From: a virus
IMG/VR virus record: IMGVR_UViG_3300045988_097942
Length of the DNA stretch: 64,000 nucleotides
Strand: one strand, 5' to 3'
Shown: one piece after another, positions 9,614 through 47,931 of the stretch
Numbering within the stretch: the first letter of the stretch is position 1
How the letters are laid out: every line of letters begins with the position of its first letter
Notes under the pieces: model-generated
Told to the model about the DNA's origin: nothing
What the model saw: only the letters and a program-made list of their open reading frames with translations
The model's database searches: none
Program-made: the position numbers and the translations under genes

Positions 9614-10165
9614 AAATTCTTTAACAGTAGGTAAATTTAAAATACCATAAAATCCTCTATTTCTATCGTTATTATTATCAAAAGTAATATAATCAAAATT
9701 TATATCTGAAAAATCCTTTTCATCTGTAATAAATCTACGACATATTTCTAAACAATTTGGTACTTTTTCTCTTTTAATATTTCTTAACAATCTTGTTTTA
9801 TCACTACAATCAATAAAAATAGGTAAAATATCAAGTTTATTATCTTGTAATAAACATTCAATTCCTTGAATATTAAAGACCCCTACATTTATTTTATCTT
9901 CTTTTAAAGATTCTATTGGAGTTCCATAACACCAATCATTAAAAACTGTAGCTTCAAGCATAGACATATTAAGTACCTTTTGAGCAAACTCTTCATTTGA
10001 TAAAAAATGATAATGAATACCATCTCTTTCATAATCTCGCGGCGGCCGCGTAGTACATGAAATAATTCCATTCATATTATAATTAGTAGTTAGCCATTTT
10101 TGAATAGTATCTTTTCCCGCCCCACTCTTTCCGAATAGGGCGAGAACTTTATATTTATTTTCCAT
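9602..10165 (-). CDS. Deoxynucleoside monophosphate kinase-like P-loop kinase
   Basis: LALFGKSGAGKDT Walker A resembling T4 gp1 (SGVKRSGKDT). Confidence 0.5.
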   Translation of the reverse strand: MENKYKVLALFGKSGAGKDTIQKWLTTNYNMNGIISCTTRPPRDYERDGIHYHFLSNEEFAQKVLNMSMLEATVFNDWCYGTPIESLKEDKINVGVFNIQGIECLLQDNKLDILPIFIDCSDKTRLLRNIKREKVPNCLEICRRFITDEKDFSDINFDYITFDNNNDRNRGFYGILNLPTVKEFLTS

Positions 10166-27343: not shown

Positions 27344-28483
27344 TCAAAATATCGCAGATAAAGTGCAATCCTTTGCATTCTTATCATCATGTATACCCTT
27401 ATAAAAGCCATGACGTATAGTATGCTCCTTGTTGTCCTTTTCCATACATTGTATCTTGCATACTTTATTTAACCATAACTCTGGATGTTCGCTCATAGAT
27501 TGTTTCATTTCATCAGAAATACCTGAATGAATTGTTCCTATATTAACAAGAACACCATTTTCATCATAAGCACCAATTTTAATACGAGCATTAAACCAAC
27601 CCATATAATATGGTTTAGTTACTAATACACTCTTATGATTAATATTTCTATATGAAAACCAGCCTTTATCTGACCTTTCGCATTCTATCCACTCACCATT
27701 TGCATCTTTTTCATAACAGATACAATAATTCCATGTATCAGATTCACTTCCATAATACTCCTTAGTTGGTTCTTCAAATCCAATGATAATTGCATCAGCA
27801 AAATCAACCTTTTTCGCTTTCAAATTAGTATCAGGTCTTTTTCCAGGCTCATAAATACCAGTTTTCTTTTTAATAACCATACCTTCTTCACCTGAATCAA
27901 GAGCAATACCAACTCTTTCATAAAGATTATCTTCCCAAGCTTCAGCTAATTCAATAAAAGAATAATTACTTAAATTATGTAACTCATAAATTTTCTGTAA
28001 GATTTTATATCTCATTTCATTATTTACTTTGTTACGAACTAAATCAACTCCATCATACATAATAATATCATGTAAATAATAATGAATTTGTCCCCACTTG
28101 CCATTTTGACGCTCAATAGCTTTAGCAGGAAGACATCCCATGATTTCAGTGCAATTTTTTGAACTTCCGCCTGGATAATATATTTCTCCAACTAAAATAG
28201 TATGAGGTGGTAAACAATCAAGAGCTTGAATTATATGAGGAACATTTTCAGATTTTTCAGCTTGTAATCCAGTCTTTTTACTTGCAGAACGAGAAAATAA
28301 ATAAGAATGATTCTCATGCTTTTCAAACTGATACCAATATCCATCTTTCTTTAGCTGACCAAAATATTCTCCACTATCACAAGCTTTTTTAAGAGAAGCA
28401 TCTGTACTTTGATGAATTAACATAGATTCATACATTATTGCTTCTGGATATAATTCTTTAATTTTCTCTTTATCAAATGCCAT
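27344..28483 (-). CDS. ATP-dependent DNA ligase
   Basis: Nucleotidyltransferase motifs: KKDGYW (motif I KxDG), EGMVIKK (motif IV) and LKAKK (motif V). Confidence 0.65.
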   Translation of the reverse strand: MAFDKEKIKELYPEAIMYESMLIHQSTDASLKKACDSGEYFGQLKKDGYWYQFEKHENHSYLFSRSASKKTGLQAEKSENVPHIIQALDCLPPHTILVGEIYYPGGSSKNCTEIMGCLPAKAIERQNGKWGQIHYYLHDIIMYDGVDLVRNKVNNEMRYKILQKIYELHNLSNYSFIELAEAWEDNLYERVGIALDSGEEGMVIKKKTGIYEPGKRPDTNLKAKKVDFADAIIIGFEEPTKEYYGSESDTWNYCICYEKDANGEWIECERSDKGWFSYRNINHKSVLVTKPYYMGWFNARIKIGAYDENGVLVNIGTIHSGISDEMKQSMSEHPELWLNKVCKIQCMEKDNKEHTIRHGFYKGIHDDKNAKDCTLSAIF

Positions 28484-35811: not shown

Positions 35812-36159
35812 TTACTCTCCTTTTACATAAATTTTTAAATTTTCATTTTGTTCTAATAATTCTCTAAATTTAGTTAAAACCTCATCAACTAATATACTAA
35901 ATTGTTCAAAAGCAATAGTTTTAGCTAACCAAGGAAATTTAGCAACAAACATATCATATACATAACGAAGTTTAATTTGTCCTGTGCCAGAACCTAATTC
36001 TTTTTCAGCTTCAGTTACAGCATATAATAACCATTCTTTTACTTTTGTAATTTGCTCACTTGTTGGGCGTTTAATAAAAGCATAAATGCAATATCCGCCA
36101 ACTACAAGAACAGCAATGGCGGCAACTAAGAGATACCAATAATTAACTAAAAATTCCAT
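35812..36159 (-). CDS. Putative holin (LL-H/phiLC3-like)
   Basis: N-terminal TM helix followed by a soluble tail, located next to the endolysin. Confidence 0.5.
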   Translation of the reverse strand: MEFLVNYWYLLVAAIAVLVVGGYCIYAFIKRPTSEQITKVKEWLLYAVTEAEKELGSGTGQIKLRYVYDMFVAKFPWLAKTIAFEQFSILVDEVLTKFRELLEQNENLKIYVKGE

Positions 36160-36174
36160 ATGTATATCCTCCTT

Positions 36175-36585
36175 TTATCCTACGGATTCGTTATTATTGT
36201 TATTTAGAGCAGAATCATAAACAATTCCGCCCACTGTATTTTCTTTTGTAGACTTAACTGCATACACAGCAAATCCAAAAACTTCTCCTACTATTGTACC
36301 TATTAGAGTAACAAGAGGAGTAAAGTCTGGGGCAAGCCCAGTTTGTAGTGCTAATTGAATACTTTGGATGGTAGCCCATCCAGTAAATAATTCAACCATA
36401 GTGCAATTTATAAATAAAAAAAGAATAAGTAACTTAGTTGTTGTTAGTTTAGATTTATCTTTTAAACTATTTCTTAACTTTGCCTTATCTTTCTCTATTT
36501 TTATTTTTCTTTTAAGTAATTGTTTATTTTTTGCCCAATCTTTTTCCTCTTGGACAAGTTTCTCTTCATCTAACATTTTAATCAC
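36175..36585 (-). CDS. Hypothetical membrane protein, possibly a second holin or spanin
   Basis: K-rich coiled-coil N-terminus plus two TM segments. Confidence 0.35.
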   Translation of the reverse strand: MIKMLDEEKLVQEEKDWAKNKQLLKRKIKIEKDKAKLRNSLKDKSKLTTTKLLILFLFINCTMVELFTGWATIQSIQLALQTGLAPDFTPLVTLIGTIVGEVFGFAVYAVKSTKENTVGGIVYDSALNNNNNESVG

Positions 36586-36711
36586 CTCGAAATTAAAAAG
36601 AATCCACGCTATTTTTAGCGTGAGTTCTATATTATAAAAATTGGTTTAAAAATTACCAAAATGCATTTTTGGTTTCAAAAGTCGACAGTAAGCGTCCCGA
36701 GCAGACTATTA

Positions 36712-37944
36712 TTACATCATTTGCGCTAACTGAGCAATTCTACTTCTATATATATTTACTAATGCAACTTCTCCATATACTTTATCGCTTCTAAAGATTT
36801 CTGATACTCGTCTCATACCATTATTATTACCAGCATATATTGATAAATCAACTTGAGCATCACTATCTCCATCTAAGATACAGATTGAATCTTCTCCAAT
36901 TCTTTGAAGAGCTAATCTCATTAGTTCAATATCTAAATTTTGTGCTTCAGTAATGTAGATACCTGCTTTTAAACCTGTAGTATCATATCCACGAATATCA
37001 GACATTGGTAATAAATCTATTTTACCTTCATATATTAAACGTTCTACTTCAGCTCTATCACCAAGCTTACTTGATAAGAAGTTACCTATTTGAGAATCAA
37101 GTAATTTTTCTGTGCGGGAACCTGGATAATATCCTAATTTAGCTGAACCAGAAGTTGCTACAGTATTACAAAAAATAATTATTTTATCAATATCTCCTTT
37201 TTCTAATAAAGAAAATAAGTATCCTATAGCTAGATATGATTTTCCTGTGCCTGCACATCCGCGAATCATAGTTATCTTGTTATTATGTAAACTATCCATT
37301 GCTATTGTTTGATAAGCATCTTTTGGCTTTATTTTTCCAAACATTTTGCTATTGAAAGCAATAAATGGCACTTGCTTAAAACCATCTTCTGTATATTTAT
37401 ATTTATCAATAATTTCTCCTTCTTTATTTTTAATTAGAAGGTATTCATTAATATTTATATCCCAATCAATAGCTGGATTAAATAAATCTGAATAAATTTG
37501 TGCAATTTTTTCTTCTGTATCACAAGTTACTACTCTATATCCAGAATAATTTTGCTCAGTTAATTTAATATATTCAACTTTTAATCCCATTAAACTAGCT
37601 AAATGTTTGCAACACAAATCTTCAGTTACAAAAGTAATAGGATTATCATTAGAATTGCTTTTTAATGCACTTATAATAATTCTACTATCATCTGTCATAG
37701 GAAGAATAGCTGAATTTTTAATATCTTCATCCCAGTCTTGGAGATAAGTAATAATATCATATTCTCCTTCATGCTCATCTAAAAGATGTAATAGTCTTCG
37801 AGCACGAAACTTTATTTCTGGGTCTTTATTAGCAGAGGTTTTGATATTTTCCAATTCTCTAAATGTAATTGTACTTACTTCAAAACGTTCATTAAATGCC
37901 TCATGTAGTTTATTCAATAGAGCACAAGTGTCGTAAAAAATCAT
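36712..37944 (-). CDS. PhoH-like ATPase with an N-terminal PIN domain
   Basis: PIN acidic residues (MIFYDTCALL) and Walker A GCAGTGKSY. Confidence 0.8.
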   Translation of the reverse strand: MIFYDTCALLNKLHEAFNERFEVSTITFRELENIKTSANKDPEIKFRARRLLHLLDEHEGEYDIITYLQDWDEDIKNSAILPMTDDSRIIISALKSNSNDNPITFVTEDLCCKHLASLMGLKVEYIKLTEQNYSGYRVVTCDTEEKIAQIYSDLFNPAIDWDININEYLLIKNKEGEIIDKYKYTEDGFKQVPFIAFNSKMFGKIKPKDAYQTIAMDSLHNNKITMIRGCAGTGKSYLAIGYLFSLLEKGDIDKIIIFCNTVATSGSAKLGYYPGSRTEKLLDSQIGNFLSSKLGDRAEVERLIYEGKIDLLPMSDIRGYDTTGLKAGIYITEAQNLDIELMRLALQRIGEDSICILDGDSDAQVDLSIYAGNNNGMRRVSEIFRSDKVYGEVALVNIYRSRIAQLAQMM

Positions 37945-38086
37945 ATATTTTTACTTCCTTTCTTATTCTGTTCATTTGAATTTAAAAAATAGGACATATT
38001 GATTAACTATTTTTACCCTATTTATATAATTATAACATATTTTTTATTAAAAATAAAATAGACCTTGCTTTAGCAAGGTCTACATA

Positions 38087-38368
38087 TTAATCGTTTTTAC
38101 GATTGACTGTGGTATTCTTAAAGAAGCTACCAATTACACCAAGAGTTCCGCACATAAGAGGCAAAGACTCTTTTGCAATATTAAAACCAAGTAATCCTAA
38201 GCCTTGAATCATTGTGTCACCAAAAGTTACTTTAATTATCCATCCTGTTATCCAACCGCAACAGAATCCAATGAATGGGGACACCAGAATAAGAAGAATT
38301 GCAAGAACAATCACTCCAAAGCATCCAAGTGCGGCTACTGTATCATCATTTTTATTATAATTATACAT
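38087..38368 (-). CDS. Small membrane protein
   Basis: Two predicted TM helices. Confidence 0.35.
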   Translation of the reverse strand: MYNYNKNDDTVAALGCFGVIVLAILLILVSPFIGFCCGWITGWIIKVTFGDTMIQGLGLLGFNIAKESLPLMCGTLGVIGSFFKNTTVNRKND

Positions 38369-38920
38369 TTATTCGTCTCTTAACTTCTTTATTTCTACTA
38401 TAAGGTCTTCAAGATTTACTGGGCTACAGTCATGAGAATCTACACCAACATGATACATATAAGTGCGGATTCCTGATTCATCAGAAAAGAAATTTGTTTG
38501 CTGATGAGTGTGACCATACAGTCCAAGTACGCGATTATTATTTCCGTTAGCTGTGATAGTCGGATAGTGGGTACATACGAAAGTGTGTTTACCCATTTTA
38601 ATTCGGTATCCCATCTGGATATCCTTGAAAAAGTGATTAGTTGCATATGCCTTAAGTCTAGCATCAGTATCATGATTACCAAAAGCAAGATACTTTTCAC
38701 CTTTTAGTTTATTAACTAAGCGGAGTCCCGCCTGAAGGTCTGCTCCCAACATTACATCGCCAAGATGATAAACAATGTCTCCATCCTTAATAGTCTCATT
38801 CCACTTAGTGAGGATTGCTTCATTCATATCCTGTACATTCTGAAAACCACGCGGCTTCCAAAGGAAATCTTTGTCATGGTTAAAGTGAGTATCACTTGTT
38901 AGCCAAATTGTTCTATCCAT
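38369..38920 (-). CDS. Calcineurin-like metallophosphoesterase; likely the polynucleotide 3'-phosphatase partner of the adjacent kinase
   Basis: MPP motifs DTHFNH, GDVM, GNHD and GHTH. Shares a stop/start junction with the pnk-like gene. Confidence 0.6.
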   Translation of the reverse strand: MDRTIWLTSDTHFNHDKDFLWKPRGFQNVQDMNEAILTKWNETIKDGDIVYHLGDVMLGADLQAGLRLVNKLKGEKYLAFGNHDTDARLKAYATNHFFKDIQMGYRIKMGKHTFVCTHYPTITANGNNNRVLGLYGHTHQQTNFFSDESGIRTYMYHVGVDSHDCSPVNLEDLIVEIKKLRDE

Positions 38921-39411
38921 TACATTTCCTCCTTTACTTCAATAGGTTTATTAGGTTCTACAATAAAAATTTTCTTAATTCCTTCCTCAAATTCAGGCAT
39001 CTCAATCTGATAAAACATACGACGGATTGCACTTACAGGAACAAAACTTCTAGTTCCCTCTCTGTTCTGATTTTGTCCGATACAAGTTTCAAGCGGAGTC
39101 TTAATCCAGACTACATCAACTTCAATATTCAGTTCAGGGTTGATAGCAGTAAGAAGTTTATTCCTTGATGCCTTATTCAGATGTGTGGCGTCCGCAAACA
39201 CATCATAGCCATTTTCCAAAGCATTGTTAATTCTTCTTGTATACTCCTTAAAAACCTGTTTTTCTTTGGAGAAGTATTCTTCATCTTCCGCGACCATAGA
39301 AAATCTTACATCATCGCGAGATACCCATACAGAGTGCTCATCAAGATGATTTTGTATCCATGTGCTTTTCCCAGACCCAGGAGTTCCCATTACAATATAT
39401 AATTTATTCAT
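38920..39411 (-). CDS. Polynucleotide 5'-kinase (T4 Pnk kinase-domain-like)
   Basis: GTPGSGKSTW and RDDVR, matching T4 Pnk GCPGSGKSTW and RDDYR, plus the NR.RG..VP lid. Confidence 0.8.
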   Translation of the reverse strand: MNKLYIVMGTPGSGKSTWIQNHLDEHSVWVSRDDVRFSMVAEDEEYFSKEKQVFKEYTRRINNALENGYDVFADATHLNKASRNKLLTAINPELNIEVDVVWIKTPLETCIGQNQNREGTRSFVPVSAIRRMFYQIEMPEFEEGIKKIFIVEPNKPIEVKEEM

Positions 39412-39412
39412 T

Positions 39413-39811
39413 TTACCACCCTCTATTTAGTAAATTTTTAGTTTCATCATTAGGATTTTCTTTTATAATCCTATGACCACATTTGTAGCTATGATTTGAG
39501 TTCCAACATCTTCCATGTTTATTATATTCACATTGAATCTTACTACAAGTCATTAAATCTGCAACAGGAATTCTATTTCCATCAATAAATCGTCCTAACC
39601 TAAACTCTTCCTCAAAATCTTCTCGACTATAAGAGCCAAAAGGTCGCACTTCCGCGTGATTTGTTTCTTTCCTGCAATATAAACAAAATAACTTTTTTAA
39701 ATGACCTGCTTCTCTCTGTTGTCCAGGTTTTCTTGTAATAGGAATGCCTCTCTTTCCACAAGCTGTGCAATAAAATTCACTTGTAGTAATTTCTCCTTTT
39801 TTTGTACCCAT
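39413..39811 (-). CDS. Hypothetical zinc-ribbon protein
   Basis: CTACG...CLYCRKE plus extra Cys/His. Confidence 0.35.
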   Translation of the reverse strand: MGTKKGEITTSEFYCTACGKRGIPITRKPGQQREAGHLKKLFCLYCRKETNHAEVRPFGSYSREDFEEEFRLGRFIDGNRIPVADLMTCSKIQCEYNKHGRCWNSNHSYKCGHRIIKENPNDETKNLLNRGW

Positions 39812-39860
39812 AATTCATCAAATCCTTTCTCTTTATCTTATATAAATATTTTATCATATT

Positions 39861-39898
39861 TTTTTTAAAAAATAAAGTGCAGAAATTAATCTGCACTT
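39861..39898 (-). terminator. Rho-independent terminator ending the NAD operon
   Basis: aagtgcag/ctgcactt stem whose loop contains the nadE stop codon, plus a U-run. Confidence 0.65.
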
Positions 39899-40629
39899 TT
39901 CGGTTGGAAATCTGCTATAGGTCGTAATTTAAAGAGATTTTGTTCATGTAATTTGTCAATTTTTTCTTTTATTGCGGTTGGCGGTTCTATTCCATCCCCA
40001 ATATAAGTATCAAGTGTTTCATAGCTAAATCCCAAATTATCTTCATCAGTCTTTCCGCATAAACCATCTTCTGGAACTTTTTCTATAAATTCAGCAGGAA
40101 GTCCTAATTCATAACCAATAGCTTTAACTTCTCTTACTAAAAGATTATGCAATGGTGAAAAATCTCCTGCTGCATCTCCAAAGATAGTAAAATAGCCAAT
40201 CCAATTTTCACTTTTATTACAAGTATTTACAACACGTCCATTTAATGTTTGGGAATAAGCATATAATGTACACATTCTTATTCTTGCTGGCATATTAGTC
40301 TGTGCTTGTGTGGAAAGAGTTAAAAATACATGATTATCTATTGCTTCAACGGCATCTTTAATATTAGATAAATAAGATTTAATACCAAGATATTTTATCA
40401 CTTCTTCTGAAGTCTGAATACTTTGCTCTCCTTGTGGCATCATAATTCCAATAACTTTATCTTTACCAAGTGCTTCTACGCAAAGAGCAGCTGCGATAGT
40501 AGAATCTTTTCCGCCTGATATACCAATAATAGCAACACAATCTTTACCATTTTTATCAAACCAATCTCTAATCCATTGAATACACTCATCTTTTGTTTTC
40601 TTTGCATCAAATTCGATTGAGGACATCAT
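39886..40629 (-). CDS. nadE: NH3-dependent NAD+ synthetase
   Basis: GISGGKDSTIAAAL PP-loop and overall similarity to E. coli NadE. Confidence 0.85.
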   Translation of the reverse strand: MMSSIEFDAKKTKDECIQWIRDWFDKNGKDCVAIIGISGGKDSTIAAALCVEALGKDKVIGIMMPQGEQSIQTSEEVIKYLGIKSYLSNIKDAVEAIDNHVFLTLSTQAQTNMPARIRMCTLYAYSQTLNGRVVNTCNKSENWIGYFTIFGDAAGDFSPLHNLLVREVKAIGYELGLPAEFIEKVPEDGLCGKTDEDNLGFSYETLDTYIGDGIEPPTAIKEKIDKLHEQNLFKLRPIADFQPKSAD

Positions 40630-41224
40630 AAAACCTCCTTAAATATTCATATACATTTTCTGGTACAATATCTTTTACTTCTTCAAATTTACCTTGCTCA
40701 CATAAACTTCTAACTAAACTTGAAGAAATATTATTTTTTGGAATTTCTATTTCTTGGAAATGACTTTTATATCTTTCTAAACCAGCTTTTTGCAAAGATT
40801 CTTCAAGATTTTCATTTTCTCTTGTACAGGCAATAAACATATTTTCCTCAACAAGAGGTTGCCAATTATACCAAGTGGTCAAAGTTGATATATTATCCAT
40901 TCCTAAACATATATAAAAATTATAAAATTTATAATCCTTATCAAAGCAATCTTTTAATTCTTGAACTGTATCATATGTCTTTTTTGGAAGAAAACTATTT
41001 ACTTCTGTAGGAATATATGTCATATCTTTTGGCGTAGCTTCTTCAATCAATCTACAGCGGCTATGCCCTGGAATCAAAGTCTTTTTCTTTGCCACATAGG
41101 TATCATGAGCTGGGATGAAGTATACCATATTAGCATTGACCGCCTTTTGGGCGGTCTTTGCCATTTCTATATGAGCATTGGTTATTGGATTGAAGCTGCC
41201 TGGTATAAGCAGAATATTATTCAT
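40607..41224 (-). CDS. Nicotinate/nicotinamide mononucleotide adenylyltransferase (NadD/NadM type)
   Basis: PGSFNPITNAHIEM ((H/T)xGH motif) and ISSSLVR (SxTxxR motif). Confidence 0.75.
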   Translation of the reverse strand: MNNILLIPGSFNPITNAHIEMAKTAQKAVNANMVYFIPAHDTYVAKKKTLIPGHSRCRLIEEATPKDMTYIPTEVNSFLPKKTYDTVQELKDCFDKDYKFYNFYICLGMDNISTLTTWYNWQPLVEENMFIACTRENENLEESLQKAGLERYKSHFQEIEIPKNNISSSLVRSLCEQGKFEEVKDIVPENVYEYLRRFYDVLNRI

Positions 41225-42431
41225 GCTCCATTCTCCAATCTATACATCTCTGTAAATAATCTACATACGCGGGATTTTTACACATTCCCTTGCCAGGTGT
41301 ATCAGAAATCTTAGCTACATCCTGTCCGTTACAAAGAGTTGTTTTCATAACAATGTTTAAAGGAGTTGCGATAGTATCATTACTTAAATAAGTTCCAATA
41401 CCGAAAGCTGCCTTAGCTCTACCATTAAAATGTCTAAATAGTTTATCTGCTCTTTCAAAATTTAAGCTATCACTGAATAGTAAAGTTTTAGTTTTAGCAT
41501 CAATTCCAAGATTTTCATAGTGCTCAATCATCTTTTCGCCCCACTCAATCGGGTCACCACTATCATGACGAACGCCACTGAAGAGAGTTGCGTATGTCAG
41601 TTGAAAATCTTTTAAGAAACAATCAGTGGTGATTGCATCTGTCAAAGCAGTTCCATTTAGCACTCCGTATTCTTTTACCCACGCGTCTAATGCATACCAG
41701 TTAGAATATGCAGGATTATGTTTATGATTGCCTTGACCCACGCACATAATCCATTCATGAGCCATTGTTCCAACAGGCGTTAAACCAAACTTCTTAGCAA
41801 GATACACATTGGAAGTTCCAACAAATCTTGATGCACAATGTGCTGTGTCATTCAAATGAGAGAACTTCTCAACTACTAGTTCCTGAGCTTCCGCAGATAA
41901 TCTACGGCGGAGACCAAATTCAGAGAATACGCCTACATACCATTTGCCAGATTTGAGATTAGTGAACTTTTCTTCAAGTCTTTCTTTGAAGCTAGCAATT
42001 AGAGTATCATAGTTATAGTTCATGCGGAAATAAACCTCATTAACGATAGCTAGAGTAGGAATTTCATACATAGAAGTGTTTAACCATGTTCCTCTTGTTT
42101 CAATACTTAATCCGCATTCAGCGTCGGCGGTAATCTCGAAATCTTCAAAACGCGGCTGCCACAGACGAAGAAAGTCTACATAGCTACCTTTAATCCACTT
42201 GATATTTTCAAGATAAGTCAGTTCATCTTCTGTAAAGCGCAGTTCACAATATGCTTTAATCTGTTCTTTAATTTCTTCAACCATTTCAGCAGTAAACTTC
42301 ACATCAGTATTTCTACATTTAAAAGTCCAAGTGGTTTTGTAGTCAGAAAACTGATGATAGATAGCCTGTCCCATGCTGAATTTATACATATCATTTTCCA
42401 GTAAGCTGGTGATAATTCTTTGCAATCTCAT
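41217..42431 (-). CDS. pncB: Nicotinate phosphoribosyltransferase
   Basis: Extensive similarity to E. coli PncB: SLLENDMYKFSMGQA, FVGTSNVYLA, TPVGTMAHEW, GVRHDSGDPIEWGEK and AKISDTPGK. Confidence 0.9.
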   Translation of the reverse strand: MRLQRIITSLLENDMYKFSMGQAIYHQFSDYKTTWTFKCRNTDVKFTAEMVEEIKEQIKAYCELRFTEDELTYLENIKWIKGSYVDFLRLWQPRFEDFEITADAECGLSIETRGTWLNTSMYEIPTLAIVNEVYFRMNYNYDTLIASFKERLEEKFTNLKSGKWYVGVFSEFGLRRRLSAEAQELVVEKFSHLNDTAHCASRFVGTSNVYLAKKFGLTPVGTMAHEWIMCVGQGNHKHNPAYSNWYALDAWVKEYGVLNGTALTDAITTDCFLKDFQLTYATLFSGVRHDSGDPIEWGEKMIEHYENLGIDAKTKTLLFSDSLNFERADKLFRHFNGRAKAAFGIGTYLSNDTIATPLNIVMKTTLCNGQDVAKISDTPGKGMCKNPAYVDYLQRCIDWRMEHE

Positions 42432-42442
42432 ATTTCCTCTCC

Positions 42443-42922
42443 TTATTCGTTAATTACATCAATTTGGCAGCTCTTCATTACTTCCAACGCAGCTTGATGC
42501 TTCTCAGGAGTGACGCCCGCGCAGCACTTAGCGTCAACCGTAATATGCATATTTGGATATAAAGCTCTTAAAATAAGCGCATTTGAAATTACACAGATAT
42601 CAGTACATAAGCCGCAAATCTCAATCTCGTCAATGGTATCAATCCAGTTGTCAAGAACTCTTATCCAATTATCATATCCGAATGTATTCTTGGAAATAAC
42701 TTCTTCATTAGCTTTAACCTCAATTTCAGGGATAATATGCCATCCCTCTGTGGCAACGATACAATGAGGAAAAGGGAGCTTCTCTCCTTCAAGAGTTTCC
42801 ATATAATTTTCATAATGAGTATCTTTGGTGAAAACTACTACATCGTTTGCCGCCCTACATTCTTCAATTTTCTTTACTACAGCAGGCACAATCGTCTGTG
42901 CTTCCGACGTACCCAGTGCCAT
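42443..42922 (-). CDS. pncA: Nicotinamidase (isochorismatase family)
   Basis: DTHYEN...HC metal site and the catalytic Cys context ICGLCTDICV. Confidence 0.75.
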   Translation of the reverse strand: MALGTSEAQTIVPAVVKKIEECRAANDVVVFTKDTHYENYMETLEGEKLPFPHCIVATEGWHIIPEIEVKANEEVISKNTFGYDNWIRVLDNWIDTIDEIEICGLCTDICVISNALILRALYPNMHITVDAKCCAGVTPEKHQAALEVMKSCQIDVINE

Positions 42923-43001
42923 GGATACGAAATCATTTTACATATCTACAACAATTAAGATTTTCATATTTTTCTTTCCTTTTCTCTCATTTCTTATATA
43001 T

Positions 43002-43030
43002 ATTATAACAAAAATTTTAATAAAAATAAA
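43002..43030 (-). promoter_or_regulatory. Promoter of the NAD operon: class-B TTTATT-N17-TATAAT, fused to the upstream terminator
   Basis: Minus strand reads ccTTTATTtttattaaaatttttgtTATAAT, directly after the hairpin at 43029-43054. Confidence 0.5.
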
Positions 43031-43055
43031 GGAGTAGGTTTTAACCTACTCCTTA
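43021..43055 (-). terminator. Rho-independent terminator
   Basis: aaggagtaggtt/aacctactcctt stem plus a U-run. Confidence 0.7.
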
Positions 43056-43057
43056 TC

Positions 43058-43402
43058 TTAATCAATCGTCTCTACATTGAAAGGAATCCACATTTTAGGA
43101 TTGAAGTTAAGAGTGTATTTATACTTATCAACATCGCCGTCTGTTATATCCTCGACTACATAAGTAACATTATCAGACAATCCGATAAAATGTTTCTTAT
43201 ATCTACCATACTCATCCTCAACTGTAACTTCAAGTTGATTATCCGCAACATCAGCATTTATAGACATTTTTCCAGTCATTTGAAAGACAACATCACCCTG
43301 TAAGCAATTAATGACTGTAATTTGTCGCACAGTATTGAAATTATCTGCTTGCTGAGAGATGTTATAGGATACCCTCTCTGCTTCTGTTGAGCATCCGCCC
43401 AA
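43058..43402 (-). CDS. Hypothetical protein, likely a frameshifted lipoprotein
   Basis: The track ORF starts at TTG. About 40 nt upstream, an RBS plus ATG (43442) encodes MKKFFTIMLMVFML in the +1 frame. Deleting one G from the GGG run at 43398-43400 would give MKKFFTIMLMVFMLGGCSTEAE, a textbook lipobox. Confidence 0.45.
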   Translation of the reverse strand: MGGCSTEAERVSYNISQQADNFNTVRQITVINCLQGDVVFQMTGKMSINADVADNQLEVTVEDEYGRYKKHFIGLSDNVTYVVEDITDGDVDKYKYTLNFNPKMWIPFNVETID

Positions 43403-43467
43403 GCATAAATACCATTAACATAATAGTGAAAAACTTTTTCATTATTTTATTCTCCTTTTTCATTATC

Positions 43468-44679
43468 TTATCCATTATGGTACTTGAGTAAAAACTCATT
43501 GGAAACCGCCTTAAAGCTACGGGCTCCGTCCTGAGACCTGAATACTAGACCTTCACGCATTCCGCCATCAATTACAGACTTGTCAGTTGCAATCGCAAGT
43601 AACTCCTCTACAGTATCAGGTAATACGAAATGCTCGTCAACGATAGGTACCCAAGGAATACCATATTCAGCTAAGATTTCTTTAGCCTCTACAGAGTTCA
43701 AACGACCTCTATCAGAGAAGATAAGATTAAATCCTACGAAGTCATGTTCTTTAAGACCATATTCCCTCTTTTGGATTCCTACACCATAAGTCTCACCCTG
43801 GAGAGTTGCCCACTCAAGGTTATACTTCTCAACTAAAGCTGCGAGTACGTCCTCAAAATGATACTTTTCAGCCATTCCAGTGTAGACATTAGTCTCATAA
43901 TAGCAACCCTTATCTGGTTTGTCAAAGACTACATTACGAGAACAGATGTAAAATTCGTGTTTCCTTCTACCCGTTCTACGATATGTAGCAGTAGTAGAAG
44001 TTCCATCAATTTTCTCTGTTGCAATCCATTCAGACTTATCTTCAAGAATCCAAGTCATGTTCTGTACACGCTCTTCATCTGTCTTAGAAACCCAGCTCGG
44101 CCATCCGTTCTTCTTATCTTTCTTTTTACCAAAGAGTGCAAACATAACTTTACGTCCCCACTCACGTCTCATCATCCATTTTGCCCAAGGCTTCTTAAAG
44201 ATATTAGGACGACGCTGTGCCATCTTCTTGTATTTATCAACAGAAGCTGCTTTTCTTTTATTATCTTCCTCAACCGCGTAGGTAACACCGATAACCTCGG
44301 TTACACCCTCATGTTCAATATCTACTCCTTTAGAAATCTGGAACTTAAGACTCTGAACCCAAGAAGGAACTTCAGAGTTCAAAATAAAGTCATCAAGTGC
44401 CATAAGCAGACCCTGAGAAATAACAGTTCCCTTAAAGTATTTCTGAGTTTTAACTTTAAAGTGCTTAGACTCAAGAAACATGAACGGCTCCTTTTCTGGC
44501 ACTTTAGAGTCAATTTCAAAATAGATAGCATAGTCTCTAACTTGGAACTGACCTTTCTTTACCATAATTCTCCATCCACCAACATGAGCAAGTTCAACTC
44601 TATCAGCTCCGGCGATAGGAGAAATGCCATCAATCTTTACTACATATGCTAATTCTCTTTCTCCCTTTGCATTTAACAT
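43468..44679 (-). CDS. ATP-dependent RNA ligase (Rnl family)
   Basis: Motif I EKIDGTS, motif IV EGLVFR and motif V FKAVSNEFLLK. A distinct DNA ligase is encoded elsewhere in the window. Confidence 0.65.
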   Translation of the reverse strand: MLNAKGERELAYVVKIDGISPIAGADRVELAHVGGWRIMVKKGQFQVRDYAIYFEIDSKVPEKEPFMFLESKHFKVKTQKYFKGTVISQGLLMALDDFILNSEVPSWVQSLKFQISKGVDIEHEGVTEVIGVTYAVEEDNKRKAASVDKYKKMAQRRPNIFKKPWAKWMMRREWGRKVMFALFGKKKDKKNGWPSWVSKTDEERVQNMTWILEDKSEWIATEKIDGTSTTATYRRTGRRKHEFYICSRNVVFDKPDKGCYYETNVYTGMAEKYHFEDVLAALVEKYNLEWATLQGETYGVGIQKREYGLKEHDFVGFNLIFSDRGRLNSVEAKEILAEYGIPWVPIVDEHFVLPDTVEELLAIATDKSVIDGGMREGLVFRSQDGARSFKAVSNEFLLKYHNG

Positions 44680-44713
44680 ACTACATCTTTCCTTTCCTTT
44701 TGTTTATATAAAT

Positions 44714-44742
44714 ATTATAACATTTATTTTTTTAAAAATCAA
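44714..44742 (-). promoter_or_regulatory. Sigma70-like promoter TTGATT-N17-TATAAT
   Basis: Minus strand reads TTGATTtttaaaaaaataaatgtTATAAT. Confidence 0.6.
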
Positions 44743-44755
44743 TAATATAATTTAT

Positions 44756-45346
44756 TTATATTTCAATTTCATATGCCGCAGCAAGAGTATCATTGACACT
44801 TCTAATATTTTCACGAAGAACATAAAGAATATCTGCTAACTCAGGATATTTATATTTACCCTGTTTTAAAACTGGAAGTAACATATTTGCTGTTTCTTTT
44901 ACATTTTTTTCAATTCTTTCTTTTTCAAATGTTCCCGCCATAGTTCGCAAATTCATATAACGGTCAAGACCTTTTACTACTAAAGCCCGCCTATTATGAA
45001 GAAGATTTTTAAAATATCTAGCTTTTGTTACTTGTTTATCTTCTCCTTCAATACATTCAATAGTCATATATCGAACAGCATCTTTTACCTTATCACAAAC
45101 AGGCAGCTCTCTATAATTTACACCACAATCTTCAATTACATCATGCAATAAGATAGTCGCAATAATACAATCATCTTTTACTCCAAGAGCAACTGCATAA
45201 CAAGCCATTTGTAAAGGATGAATAATATAAGGAGTAACGCCATCTTTTCTGAATTGTCCTTCATGCTTTTCTTTTGCATATCCAAGAGCTTTCATACTCT
45301 CAGTAAAACCAGCGCCAGTAATATACCCTTTTAAATAAGTGTACAT
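44756..45346 (-). CDS. HD-domain (p)ppGpp hydrolase-like protein (RelA/SpoT HD, Mesh1-like)
   Basis: HPLQMACYAVALGVKDDCIIATILLHDVIEDCG matches the SpoT HD-domain signature. Confidence 0.65.
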   Translation of the reverse strand: MYTYLKGYITGAGFTESMKALGYAKEKHEGQFRKDGVTPYIIHPLQMACYAVALGVKDDCIIATILLHDVIEDCGVNYRELPVCDKVKDAVRYMTIECIEGEDKQVTKARYFKNLLHNRRALVVKGLDRYMNLRTMAGTFEKERIEKNVKETANMLLPVLKQGKYKYPELADILYVLRENIRSVNDTLAAAYEIEI

Positions 45347-45389
45347 TTTTTCAACATTATATTCAGTTATAATATTACTCCTTTCTTAT

Positions 45390-46043
45390 TTAAAAATCAA
45401 ATTCGTAATCAGGCTCTTTTTCAGTTTCTTTTGTAATTTGAAGGAACACAGGAACCCCAATGCCGGTGTAAGACGCAAAGCTGAAGCTGGCATGTCCGCT
45501 GCCGGCGACAAAACAGCAGCTAGCAGAGCTACCAGAGCGAACAGTAGCTAACCACCAGGCGCAGGTTTCACCATCTTCCCAATAACTATTATCTTTACCA
45601 CGATAACCCTTAACTCTTACAACATTGCCTCTTTTATACCATTCAAATTGTTTAATACCTAATTCTTTTTTCTCATCTCCATATTTATTTTGACCAAAAA
45701 CTTGACGCTCACATGGAACAAATAAAAAATCAATATCTTTCATCATACTAACTGGTAAAACTTCTTTATCTCCAATTTTACCAGTTTTATAAATCTGTCT
45801 GAGAATAGAAGGAATCTCTTTATGAGGAGCGCATTTAAAGATTTCATCCATTGAAAAAATATATTTATCTCCATCAATATCAACACAAGTAACAGGATTA
45901 CCTTCAATCATATATCTTTGACCAAGAGCAACCATACCTGCATTAACTGCGGCTTTTAAAGAACATTCAGTTTCATCTGATTTTCTTTTTGGTTTACTGT
46001 CGGAAAATTTAATCATTTTTTTATTACCTCTTTTCTTATACAA
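45390..46043 (-). CDS. Hypothetical protein
   Basis: No recognisable motif. Confidence 0.4.
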   Translation of the reverse strand: MYKKRGNKKMIKFSDSKPKRKSDETECSLKAAVNAGMVALGQRYMIEGNPVTCVDIDGDKYIFSMDEIFKCAPHKEIPSILRQIYKTGKIGDKEVLPVSMMKDIDFLFVPCERQVFGQNKYGDEKKELGIKQFEWYKRGNVVRVKGYRGKDNSYWEDGETCAWWLATVRSGSSASCCFVAGSGHASFSFASYTGIGVPVFLQITKETEKEPDYEFDF

Positions 46044-47094: not shown

Positions 47095-47931
47095 TCATAA
47101 TTTTTCTACTTTCCCTTCCATGTAATCTTTTAAATCTATTGCTACATCATTAAATAGCATAGTTCTATATCTTTCATCTGGTCTTGGATAATCGCGGAAT
47201 TGATGATAATGTCCCCAAAGCCATGCCTTATAATCAAGTTGATACTCAATTTGTCCAAGGTATCTTTCCATATCTTTTTCAACCATTGATTGGTCAACTA
47301 TAGAAAGAAATAAATCAGTAGGTTCATACATAACAGGACAAGTATGAGATAATACTAAATCACAATTCCATCCTTGTTGTTCTATTAAAGCTAAACCAGC
47401 TAATTGTTCACTTTCAGACAACTGTTCCTGTGGAAACCAACTCCAACCCGCTTCAAGTCTTCTATATTTATCTACTGAATAAGCACCAGGAATAACTAAA
47501 GTTTTATAATATTTCTGAACTTCAATATCATCATCAGATGGGTTTTCAGGTGTTACGTAATCTACTCCTGCTGGAATATAATAAAAAGATACAAAATCTT
47601 CTGCATATTTAATGTAAGGATAGTCATTTTCTACCCAAACTTTTCCTCTCCAAAATAATTCTTGATGCCATTTATCTGGATTCTTTTCTGCACAGATACT
47701 TGGTCTTTCTTCATGATTACCACGTACTACAAAATAAGTAAATGGATATTTTCCTAATTCCTTTTTTAATTCTTCATCACGATGATTAAAAAAGAAATTT
47801 AGTCCTGCATCACCAAGTAAGATTAAAGTATTTTCATTGTTATTAAAGGTATATGGATGACGTTGATATAAATCTCGAACAGGTTTCCAACTTCCATGTA
47901 TATCACCCATTAAATAAATCTTTTCGCTCAT
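47095..47931 (-). CDS. Calcineurin-like metallophosphoesterase
   Basis: MGDIHGS, LGDAG and GNHEE motifs. Confidence 0.65.
   Translation of the reverse strand: MSEKIYLMGDIHGSWKPVRDLYQRHPYTFNNNENTLILLGDAGLNFFFNHRDEELKKELGKYPFTYFVVRGNHEERPSICAEKNPDKWHQELFWRGKVWVENDYPYIKYAEDFVSFYYIPAGVDYVTPENPSDDDIEVQKYYKTLVIPGAYSVDKYRRLEAGWSWFPQEQLSESEQLAGLALIEQQGWNCDLVLSHTCPVMYEPTDLFLSIVDQSMVEKDMERYLGQIEYQLDYKAWLWGHYHQFRDYPRPDERYRTMLFNDVAIDLKDYMEGKVEKL

Follow-up and report, generated by a model that had tools for sequence, protein, structure and literature searches.

A phage gene cassette with a stand-alone polynucleotide kinase, an aq_1665-type metallophosphoesterase and an Rnl5-type ligase as a probable multi-polypeptide RNA repair system

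Analysis of a 64,000-nucleotide stretch of viral DNA (IMG/VR record IMGVR_UViG_3300045988_097942, hereafter the window) identified a minus-strand gene cassette encoding a predicted stand-alone polynucleotide kinase (Pnk), a metallophosphoesterase (MPP) and an Rnl5-type RNA ligase. We consider this gut or rumen phage cassette likely to be a multi-polypeptide RNA end-healing and sealing system, and put the probability of that reading at roughly 60%. To our knowledge, T4, with its Pnkp and Rnl1, is the one phage whose RNA repair is biochemically understood. Iyer, Aravind and co-workers have already predicted RNA-repair neighbourhoods with a kinase, a ligase and a calcineurin-like phosphoesterase in phages (2021, 2022; PMC7824862, PMC9503650), and proposed from gene neighbourhoods that phage RNA ligases act with polynucleotide kinases and phosphoesterases, the latter usually HAD and "in a small number" calcineurin-like or HD. 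The concept is known, but the combination of a stand-alone Pnk kinase, an aq_1665-type MPP, an Rnl5 ligase and a protein resembling ribosomal bL33 is new. The three predicted enzymes are as follows, with sizes in amino acids (aa).

38920..39411, minus strand: predicted stand-alone 5′-OH polynucleotide kinase, 163 aa; T4 Pnk/CthPnkp-type P-loop kinase
38369..38920, minus strand: stand-alone binuclear MPP, 183 aa; aq_1665/COG4186-type, phrog_547; predicted 2′,3′-cyclic-phosphate/3′-phosphate end healer
43468..44679, minus strand: Rnl5-type ATP-dependent RNA ligase, 403 aa; N-terminal OB fold and nucleotidyltransferase domain, KIDG lysine motif; predicted sealing component

The prediction that the 163-aa protein is a 5′-OH polynucleotide kinase without a fused phosphatase is well supported by sequence comparison. 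The protein matches Pfam family PF13671 (AAA_33, E = 1.1e-21) and the PHROGs family phrog_505, "polynucleotide kinase" (E = 1.1e-25), where the aligned part covers only positions 1-146 of 295, the kinase half; a C-terminal DxDxT (HAD) phosphatase domain is absent from the polypeptide. A preliminary description of this DNA had delimited the kinase and MPP genes and pointed to motifs shared with T4 Pnk. Both reading frames lie exactly where it placed them, on the minus strand, and the motif matches are real despite only 27% overall identity to the T4 kinase domain: GTPGSGKSTW pairs with GCPGSGKSTW of T4, RDDVR with RDDYR, and the lid NREGTRSFVP with KRGTKAVP, while SRDDVR also pairs with RDDFR of Pnkp1. 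The Walker A P-loop (GxxGxGK[ST]) occupies residues 9-17 (GTPGSGKST). All 22 kinase homologues keep G9, P11, G12, G14 and K15, and have Ser or Thr at position 16. Equally invariant are S31, R32, D33 and R36, with D33 and R36 aligning with T4 D35 and R38, as well as R117 and R121, with R117 aligning with the T4 lid residue R126. In T4 Pnk, residues K15, S16, D35, R38 and R126 are catalytic.

A profile built from the 22 homologues and compared with the PDB matched the kinase of Clostridium thermocellum Pnkp (CthPnkp, 6.8e-15), PSTK (4e-14), Pnkp1 (6.6e-12), T4 Pnk (1.6e-10) and mammalian PNKP (4e-8). Except for two weak, poorly described proteins (9drz, 9d8a), all significant matches were polynucleotide or tRNA kinases, and no nucleotide or sugar kinase was among them. 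With the single sequence, the best PDB match was Pnkp1 of Capnocytophaga gingivalis (4xrp, 5.6e-7). The best NCBIfam matches were PSTK and bacterial Pnkp; the bacterial Pnkp model TIGR04075 scored 44.7 bits against a cutoff of 750 and was covered in its kinase part alone. An identity as a 5-hmdU DNA kinase was considered and rejected, the PF18748 match being marginal (E = 0.0098 across 28 residues). Moreover, a guanylate kinase is encoded separately in the window (9602..10165), which argues that the 163-aa protein is not the phage's nucleotide kinase. Nineteen independent metagenome contigs, drawn from several sequencing runs, encode the identical kinase protein, so the gene is not an assembly artefact, and contigs of up to ~146 kb carry proteins 97-99% identical to the kinase and MPP products.

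The kinase stop codon overlaps the MPP start codon (TAATG), with a strong Shine-Dalgarno sequence (AAGGAGG) just upstream. Profile searches placed the 183-aa product in PF12850 (Metallophos_2, E = 4.3e-8) and in phrog_547, "phosphoesterase" (E = 3.3e-41), and its AlphaFold model is confident (pLDDT 92). All motifs of a binuclear MPP are present (DxH, GD, GNH(D/E), H and GHxH), in agreement with the earlier proposal that the gene downstream of the kinase encodes such an enzyme and not a HAD phosphatase. Across 23 homologues D10, H12, G54-D55, G81-N82-H83, H118 and H137-x-H139 are invariant, and D84 and G136 are kept in at least 90%. The closest match in both sequence and structure is the aq_1665/COG4186 branch, named for the Aquifex aeolicus protein aq_1665 (1xm7), a structural-genomics protein without a known RNA-repair link.

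The ligase gene proposed in the preliminary description is likewise genuine. Its product carries PF21189 (PHA02142 OB fold) at residues 10-93 and PF09414 (RNA_ligase) at residues 217-392, with an insertion of ~100 aa between the OB and nucleotidyltransferase domains, and its KxDG lysine motif reads KIDG. It matches Naegleria NgrRnl (5cot, E = 2.4e-30) and the DRB0094 family model TIGR02306 (E = 3.6e-27; 95 bits, below the equivalog cutoff of 151). Rnl5 enzymes join 3′-OH/5′-phosphate nicks in duplexes with RNA on the 3′ side, and their physiology has been called "uncharted" (PMC5397189). For the enzyme in the window the chemistry can be predicted well, but the substrate cannot. Since the ligase is a nick-sealing Rnl5 and not of the T4 Rnl1 type, repair of anticodon loops is not assured; the suggestion that the pathway counters anticodon nucleases of the PrrC, RloC or colicin type is plausible, but a nick-sealing ligase makes such a target less obvious.

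Taken together, these predictions suggest the following scheme. The kinase would move the ATP gamma-phosphate onto 5′-OH RNA ends, as its conserved catalytic residues and homology to solved polynucleotide kinases indicate. The translationally coupled MPP would strip the 2′,3′-cyclic phosphate or 3′-phosphate left by metal-independent ribonucleases; for this 3′-end healing step, which we infer mainly from gene linkage, the other pointer is the intact dinuclear site. The Rnl5-type ligase would then seal the resulting 3′-OH and 5′-phosphate ends in base-paired RNA, for example nicked tRNA or rRNA. The likely role would be to undo damage that host ribonucleases inflict on the translation apparatus of the infected cell.

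In its logic of phage-encoded healing followed by sealing, the cassette resembles T4 Pnkp and Rnl1, which repair tRNA cut by PrrC, and the kinase shares with T4 both the fold and the catalytic residues (P-loop Lys/Ser, Asp/Arg of RDDxR, lid Arg). However, the T4 kinase is fused to a HAD (DxDxT) phosphatase, whereas here the kinase stands alone with an MPP as partner, and the T4 ligase is Rnl1, whereas the ligase here is a nick-sealing Rnl5 with an N-terminal OB fold. Closer to the kinase by profile is C. thermocellum Pnkp, whose kinase module is the best PDB match, and bacterial Pnkp also uses a binuclear MPP for 3′ healing, as predicted here. The earlier statement that the pair mirrors bacterial Pnkp stands at the level of the superfamily but no further; the lambda-phosphatase/NinI-like MPP of the window is another gene, at 56795..57520. 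Bacterial Pnkp is also a single trifunctional polypeptide (kinase, MPP phosphatase and ligase) that works with Hen1, whereas the window has three separate genes. Separate polypeptides, including a separate ligase, are found in the Capnocytophaga gingivalis Pnkp1-Rnl-Hen1 complex (4xrp), but there the phosphatase is a T4-like HAD domain fused to the kinase, from a superfamily other than the MPPs, and Hen1 is part of the complex (PMC4411300). No methyltransferase, and so no Hen1, was found among the ~50 open reading frames scanned against Pfam and PHROGs, a set that excludes short frames and comes from ~64 kb of a ~146-kb genome.

Along the minus strand, the gene order is an HD protein resembling RelA/SpoT hydrolases, the Rnl ligase, a small gene, a hairpin, PncA, NAPRTase, NMNAT, NadE, a second hairpin, a zinc-finger protein, the kinase, the MPP, a 93-aa membrane protein, a third hairpin and a PIN-PhoH protein. 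The further elements of this region are listed here.

39413..39811, minus strand: zinc-ribbon protein, 132 aa, two zinc clusters, N-terminal bL33-like zinc ribbon; heads the zinc-finger, kinase, MPP and membrane-protein unit
38087..38368, minus strand: predicted membrane protein, 93 aa; last gene of that unit
38058..38083, minus strand: terminator-like hairpin (stem of 11 bp, then a T run) immediately 3′ of the membrane-protein gene; ends the unit
39874..39899, minus strand: terminator-like hairpin at the end of nadE, between the NAD-salvage block and the zinc-finger, kinase and MPP unit
39886..42922, minus strand: NAD+ salvage block (PncA, NAPRTase, NMNAT, NadE), between the ligase and the rest of the cassette
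43029..43054, minus strand: terminator-like hairpin after the small gene 3′ of the ligase, between the ligase unit and the NAD-salvage block

Successive genes in the zinc-finger, kinase, MPP and membrane-protein unit are spaced by +1, -1 (the TAATG overlap) and 0 nt. The region holds 8 terminator-like sites where 3.3 ± 2.3 are expected. A promoter scan of the region found 38 against 41 expected from shuffled sequence, so we claim no promoter. The NAD+ block is a complete Preiss-Handler set (PncA nicotinamidase, NAPRTase, NMNAT and NAD synthetase). Directly upstream of the ligase, the 196-aa HD protein (44756..45346, minus strand) carries a RelA/SpoT hydrolase domain (TIGR00691, E = 2e-20) and is possibly a small alarmone hydrolase; the related loci described below showed no such protein near the cassette. 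The PIN-PhoH fusion protein 3′ of the cassette (36712..37944, minus strand, 410 aa) may be functionally linked to it as an RNA nuclease or ATPase.

Megablast of positions 36000..46000 against 50,697 phage records gave no match. There is thus no close sequenced relative among them, and we turned to protein-level and metagenome searches. A scan of IMG/VR with the kinase alignment yielded 80 loci, 66 of them non-identical, at 40-60% kinase identity. In 59 of the 66 the MPP is the next gene downstream after the kinase; in 6 it comes farther along on that side, and 1 locus lacks it. Of the 66 loci, 39 have a same-strand Rnl5 ligase gene upstream, in 29 cases within 1 kb. A zinc-finger gene immediately precedes the kinase in 43, and PIN-PhoH lies downstream of the MPP in 30; the 93-aa membrane protein is kept in a minority. 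The same cassette order was found in phage contigs binned into rabbit-gut and rumen metagenome-assembled genomes. The tie of the kinase-MPP pair to the ligase is therefore stronger than first claimed, the ligase being immediately upstream in relatives. The description of the pair as a "split" enzyme, on the other hand, did not hold: a fused kinase-MPP (Rosetta-stone) form was looked for in the 66 loci and none was found. We take the ancestral order to be a contiguous series of ligase, bL33-like zinc finger, kinase and MPP, and the bL33-like zinc-ribbon protein belongs to the cassette.

Because the pair lies directly downstream of PncA-NAPRTase-NMNAT-NadE, we also weighed a role in nucleotide or NAD metabolism, with the kinase acting on nicotinamide riboside or nucleosides and the MPP as a nucleotide or ADP-ribose phosphohydrolase. 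AAA_33 does include small-molecule kinases, with a weak gluconokinase match for the window protein (E = 0.0015), and the MPP region lies near NAMPT or PRPP-synthetase genes in phages PaP1, Ceto and Stab20. However, NadE occurs in 1 and PncA in 2 of the 66 related loci, so that NAD genes are absent from the neighbourhood in ~64 of them while the linkage of kinase, MPP and ligase persists; terminator-like hairpins flank the NAD block on both sides and set it apart from the cassette. The significant PDB matches, save the two weak ones, are polynucleotide or tRNA kinases, and the Asp/Arg motif of nucleic-acid kinases is invariant. We therefore regard this role as very improbable and have largely rejected it. 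With the cassette contiguous in relatives and the NAD genes nearly always absent from them, we take the NAD-salvage block to be a later, terminator-bounded insertion outside the repair cassette. We think it probable that the block is a mobile module countering immunity that depletes NAD.

The 66 loci belong to related phages, and ancestry may explain part of their synteny; we therefore sampled 11 other phage lineages carrying the same MPP family. In six of the 11 (Phass-1, E. coli Schickermooser, Pseudomonas PaP1, Vibrio Ceto, E. coli pangalan and Stenotrophomonas YB07) the MPP has a Pnk-like kinase no more than 2 kb away, and in four of these six that kinase belongs to a different small family, phrog_2071, with phrog_505 second best. 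Five of the 11 have an RNA ligase within 4 kb; in Schickermooser, PaP1, Ceto and pangalan its annotation is T4 Rnl1-type, and the ligase family (phrog_562) is confirmed for Schickermooser only. This MPP thus recurs with Pnk-like kinases, and usually with Rnl1-type ligases, in unrelated rV5-like, phAPEC8-like, PaP1 and Vibrio Ceto phages. Finding one MPP family alongside different kinase and ligase families points to a common pathway and not to an inherited gene order.

For the neighbourhoods that Iyer, Aravind and colleagues described in rV5-like and other medium or jumbo phages, we confirmed that the MPP is of the same family as here. They combine it with a phrog_2071 kinase and an Rnl1-type ligase, often with Sir2, cREC or MazG partners, whereas the present cassette has a phrog_505-like kinase, an Rnl5 ligase and a bL33-like zinc-ribbon protein; both are predicted repair sets. 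In PaP1 and Ceto, NAMPT and PRPP synthetase genes lie near the ligase, kinase and MPP genes, and in Staphylococcus phage Stab20 a PRPP synthetase gene lies near the MPP. Among sequenced phages, the closest homologues of the kinase are the N-terminal halves of 324-aa proteins in Bacillus phage Izhevsk (6001..6975 of the locus analysed) and other Tsamsa-like phages. These proteins adjoin a "tRNA ligase"; one relative is annotated as HD-domain-containing, and they may be a further kinase-phosphoesterase combination, a putative kinase-HD one.

Several observations weigh against the RNA-repair reading, above all against its 3′-healing step. The phosphatase of bacterial Pnkp is lambda-phosphatase-like, with an essential phosphate-contacting Arg (Arg237 in CthPnkp, Arg53 in lambda phosphatase; PMC3675462), unlike the adjacent 183-aa MPP. 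In the latter, motif II reads GDVMLG, so that the second Asp and the Arg of the canonical GDxxDR are missing at the motif level; the alignment places the missing Arg at the position of CthPnkp Arg237 and lambda phosphatase Arg53, and the protein falls outside the lambda-phosphatase branch. After aq_1665, its next characterised structural neighbours are LpxH, YfcE and MJ0936, none known as an RNA-end phosphatase. A search of the literature available to us gave no functional or biochemical study of the aq_1665/COG4186 MPP family, and we know of no member whose substrate is known. Rnl5 ligases require a duplex nick, and the sole physiological evidence for them is Deinococcus radiation resistance and DNA repair (PMC5397189). 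Shared ancestry could account for much of the synteny among close relatives. In five of the 11 other lineages the MPP occurs without a kinase: it stands alone in Streptomyces, Staphylococcus and Enterococcus phages and adjoins exonucleases in Bacillus phage Juglone. Chromosomal homologues in the lactic acid bacteria Enterococcus and Lactiplantibacillus have no kinase or ligase nearby; their neighbours (a 5′-nucleotidase-like gene, a YutD-like gene, and a transposase or signal peptidase) are uninformative on RNA repair.

An alternative is that the kinase and ligase repair RNA but that 3′ ends are healed by a host enzyme or by a second MPP of the window:

56795..57520, minus strand: second MPP, lambda-phosphatase/NinI-like, 241 aa; alternative or additional 3′-end healing candidate

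The adjacent 183-aa MPP would then, for example, degrade cyclic-nucleotide or oligonucleotide defence signals, or act as a nuclease. The 241-aa protein matches lambda phosphatase (1g5b, E = 1.6e-6) and the phosphatase half of the fused kinase-phosphatase family phrog_246 (positions 176-395), and the window kinase matches the kinase half (positions 8-112); because the two proteins match its two halves, we take phrog_246 to be a lineage homologous to the bacterial Pnkp kinase-phosphatase. The 241-aa protein is the true homologue, within the window, of the bacterial Pnkp phosphatase module, and both lambda phosphatase and CthPnkp hydrolyse 2′,3′-cyclic phosphates (PMC3675462). NinI-like genes adjoin the ligase, kinase and MPP genes in Vibrio phage Ceto and MPPs in Enterococcus phage EFDG1; the family of the adjacent MPP, as noted, lacks a kinase in several phage lineages and on bacterial chromosomes; and phage calcineurin-like phosphodiesterases have been proposed as counter-nucleotide enzymes (PMC7824862). 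On the other side, the NinI-like gene of the window is 17 kb off, beside a gene for a poly(ADP-ribose) glycohydrolase (PARG), whereas the kinase and adjacent MPP genes overlap or nearly abut at the 59 loci where they are neighbours. The recurrence of the pairing with phrog_2071 kinases and other ligase families in unrelated phages is hard to explain without a shared pathway. We judge it unlikely, on balance, that healing is left to another enzyme.

Another possibility is that the cassette acts on DNA or on RNA-DNA junctions, healing 3′-phosphate/5′-OH nicks in phage DNA or processing ribonucleotide-containing nicks during replication and repair, with Rnl5 sealing nicks that have RNA on the 3′ side. 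T4 Pnk-type kinases are active on DNA as well as RNA. The cassette adjoins a replication and recombination module and the PIN-PhoH gene, and the exonuclease genes beside the MPP in Juglone fit the same picture. In Deinococcus, loss of the Rnl5 enzyme DraRnl sensitises cells to ionising radiation and delays genome reassembly, and the authors do not decide between DNA repair, RNA repair and a part in both as the function of Rnl5 and Rnl2 enzymes (PMC5397189). On the D. radiodurans megaplasmid, DR_B0094 (DraRnl) lies close to DR_B0098-B0100 (Pnk, PARG and LigB), and the window likewise holds an Rnl5 ligase, a Pnk-type kinase and a PARG; however, the Deinococcus system is bacterial, tied to radiation resistance and DNA repair, differs in operon structure and has no reported aq_1665-type MPP (PMC5397189). 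Against a DNA substrate, the phage has its own dedicated ATP-dependent DNA ligase (27344..28483, minus strand) and so does not depend on the Rnl5 enzyme to join DNA. In the window, tRNA- and RNA-directed functions are abundant: a Thg1-like enzyme, four tRNA genes and, inside the cassette itself, the bL33-like protein. The partner ligase in other phages is of the T4 Rnl1 type, and the tRNA kinase PSTK is among the nearest relatives of the window kinase by profile. We therefore hold a primary role in DNA repair to be improbable, and the RNA-repair reading remains the one we favour, with the observation in the preliminary description confirmed and its interpretation partly supported.

The window as a whole is AT-rich (~30% GC), and its GC skew is strongly negative over the long block of minus-strand genes. 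It also carries a phage replication module, a gene for an endolysin, and tRNA genes. The 241-aa MPP gene lies directly downstream of the PARG gene, which is of the microbial type (57546..58316, minus strand; PF10021, E = 6e-28). Within 47095..49082 (minus strand) lies a Thg1-like tRNA-His guanylyltransferase, a 3′-5′ polymerase (PF04446, E = 5e-30; phrog_4717, E = 2e-88), adjoined by a third MPP (278 aa, phrog_1649); the two could provide a tRNA 5′-end repair function needing 5′-phosphorylated ends. A DUF2828/DUF7788 protein (494 aa, phrog_850, "RNA-binding protein") lies in the region 60315..63441 (minus strand), near the four tRNA genes (Cys-GCA, Gly-UCC, Thr-UGU and Ala-UGC). The region 50651..55108 (minus strand) encodes an 837-aa protein with a major-vault-protein shoulder and repeat domains (PF11978, E = 1e-21; PF17795), adjoined by a 517-aa SPFH/flotillin-like protein, a pairing that is unusual in a phage. 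At 81..315 (plus strand), an RT-2 RNA motif (RF03077, 94 bits, E = 2e-20) overlaps the start of an open reading frame (304..1080, plus strand) of the reverse transcriptase family phrog_1423 (E = 4e-54). The anaerobic ribonucleotide reductase NrdD and its likely activase (6899..9313, minus strand) are consistent with an anaerobic gut or rumen host.

More broadly, and only as a tentative idea that is possible rather than probable, the aq_1665/COG4186 MPPs may be an unrecognised class of RNA 3′-end healers, used in modular fashion with stand-alone Pnk-type kinases and varied ligases, the trio being led in this phage clade to the ribosome or tRNA by the bL33-like protein. Were this so, an Rnl5 ligase would for the first time have a physiological context in RNA repair; the cassette offers a concrete setting in which to study such an enzyme. 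The known end-healing domains are HAD, lambda-phosphatase-type MPP, HD and 2H, and the repertoire would gain another branch beyond these. If the adjacent MPP is a 3′-end healer, a function would fall to a very widespread phage "phosphoesterase" family, with 1,391 phage records (~1,400 sequenced phage genomes). One MPP family with two kinase and two ligase families shows modular assembly of such counter-defence pathways. Alongside the NAD-salvage genes, the PARG, the alarmone-hydrolase-like protein and the Thg1-like enzyme of the window, the cassette is probably part of a toolkit with which a large gut or rumen phage meets translation-targeting and NAD-depleting host defences.

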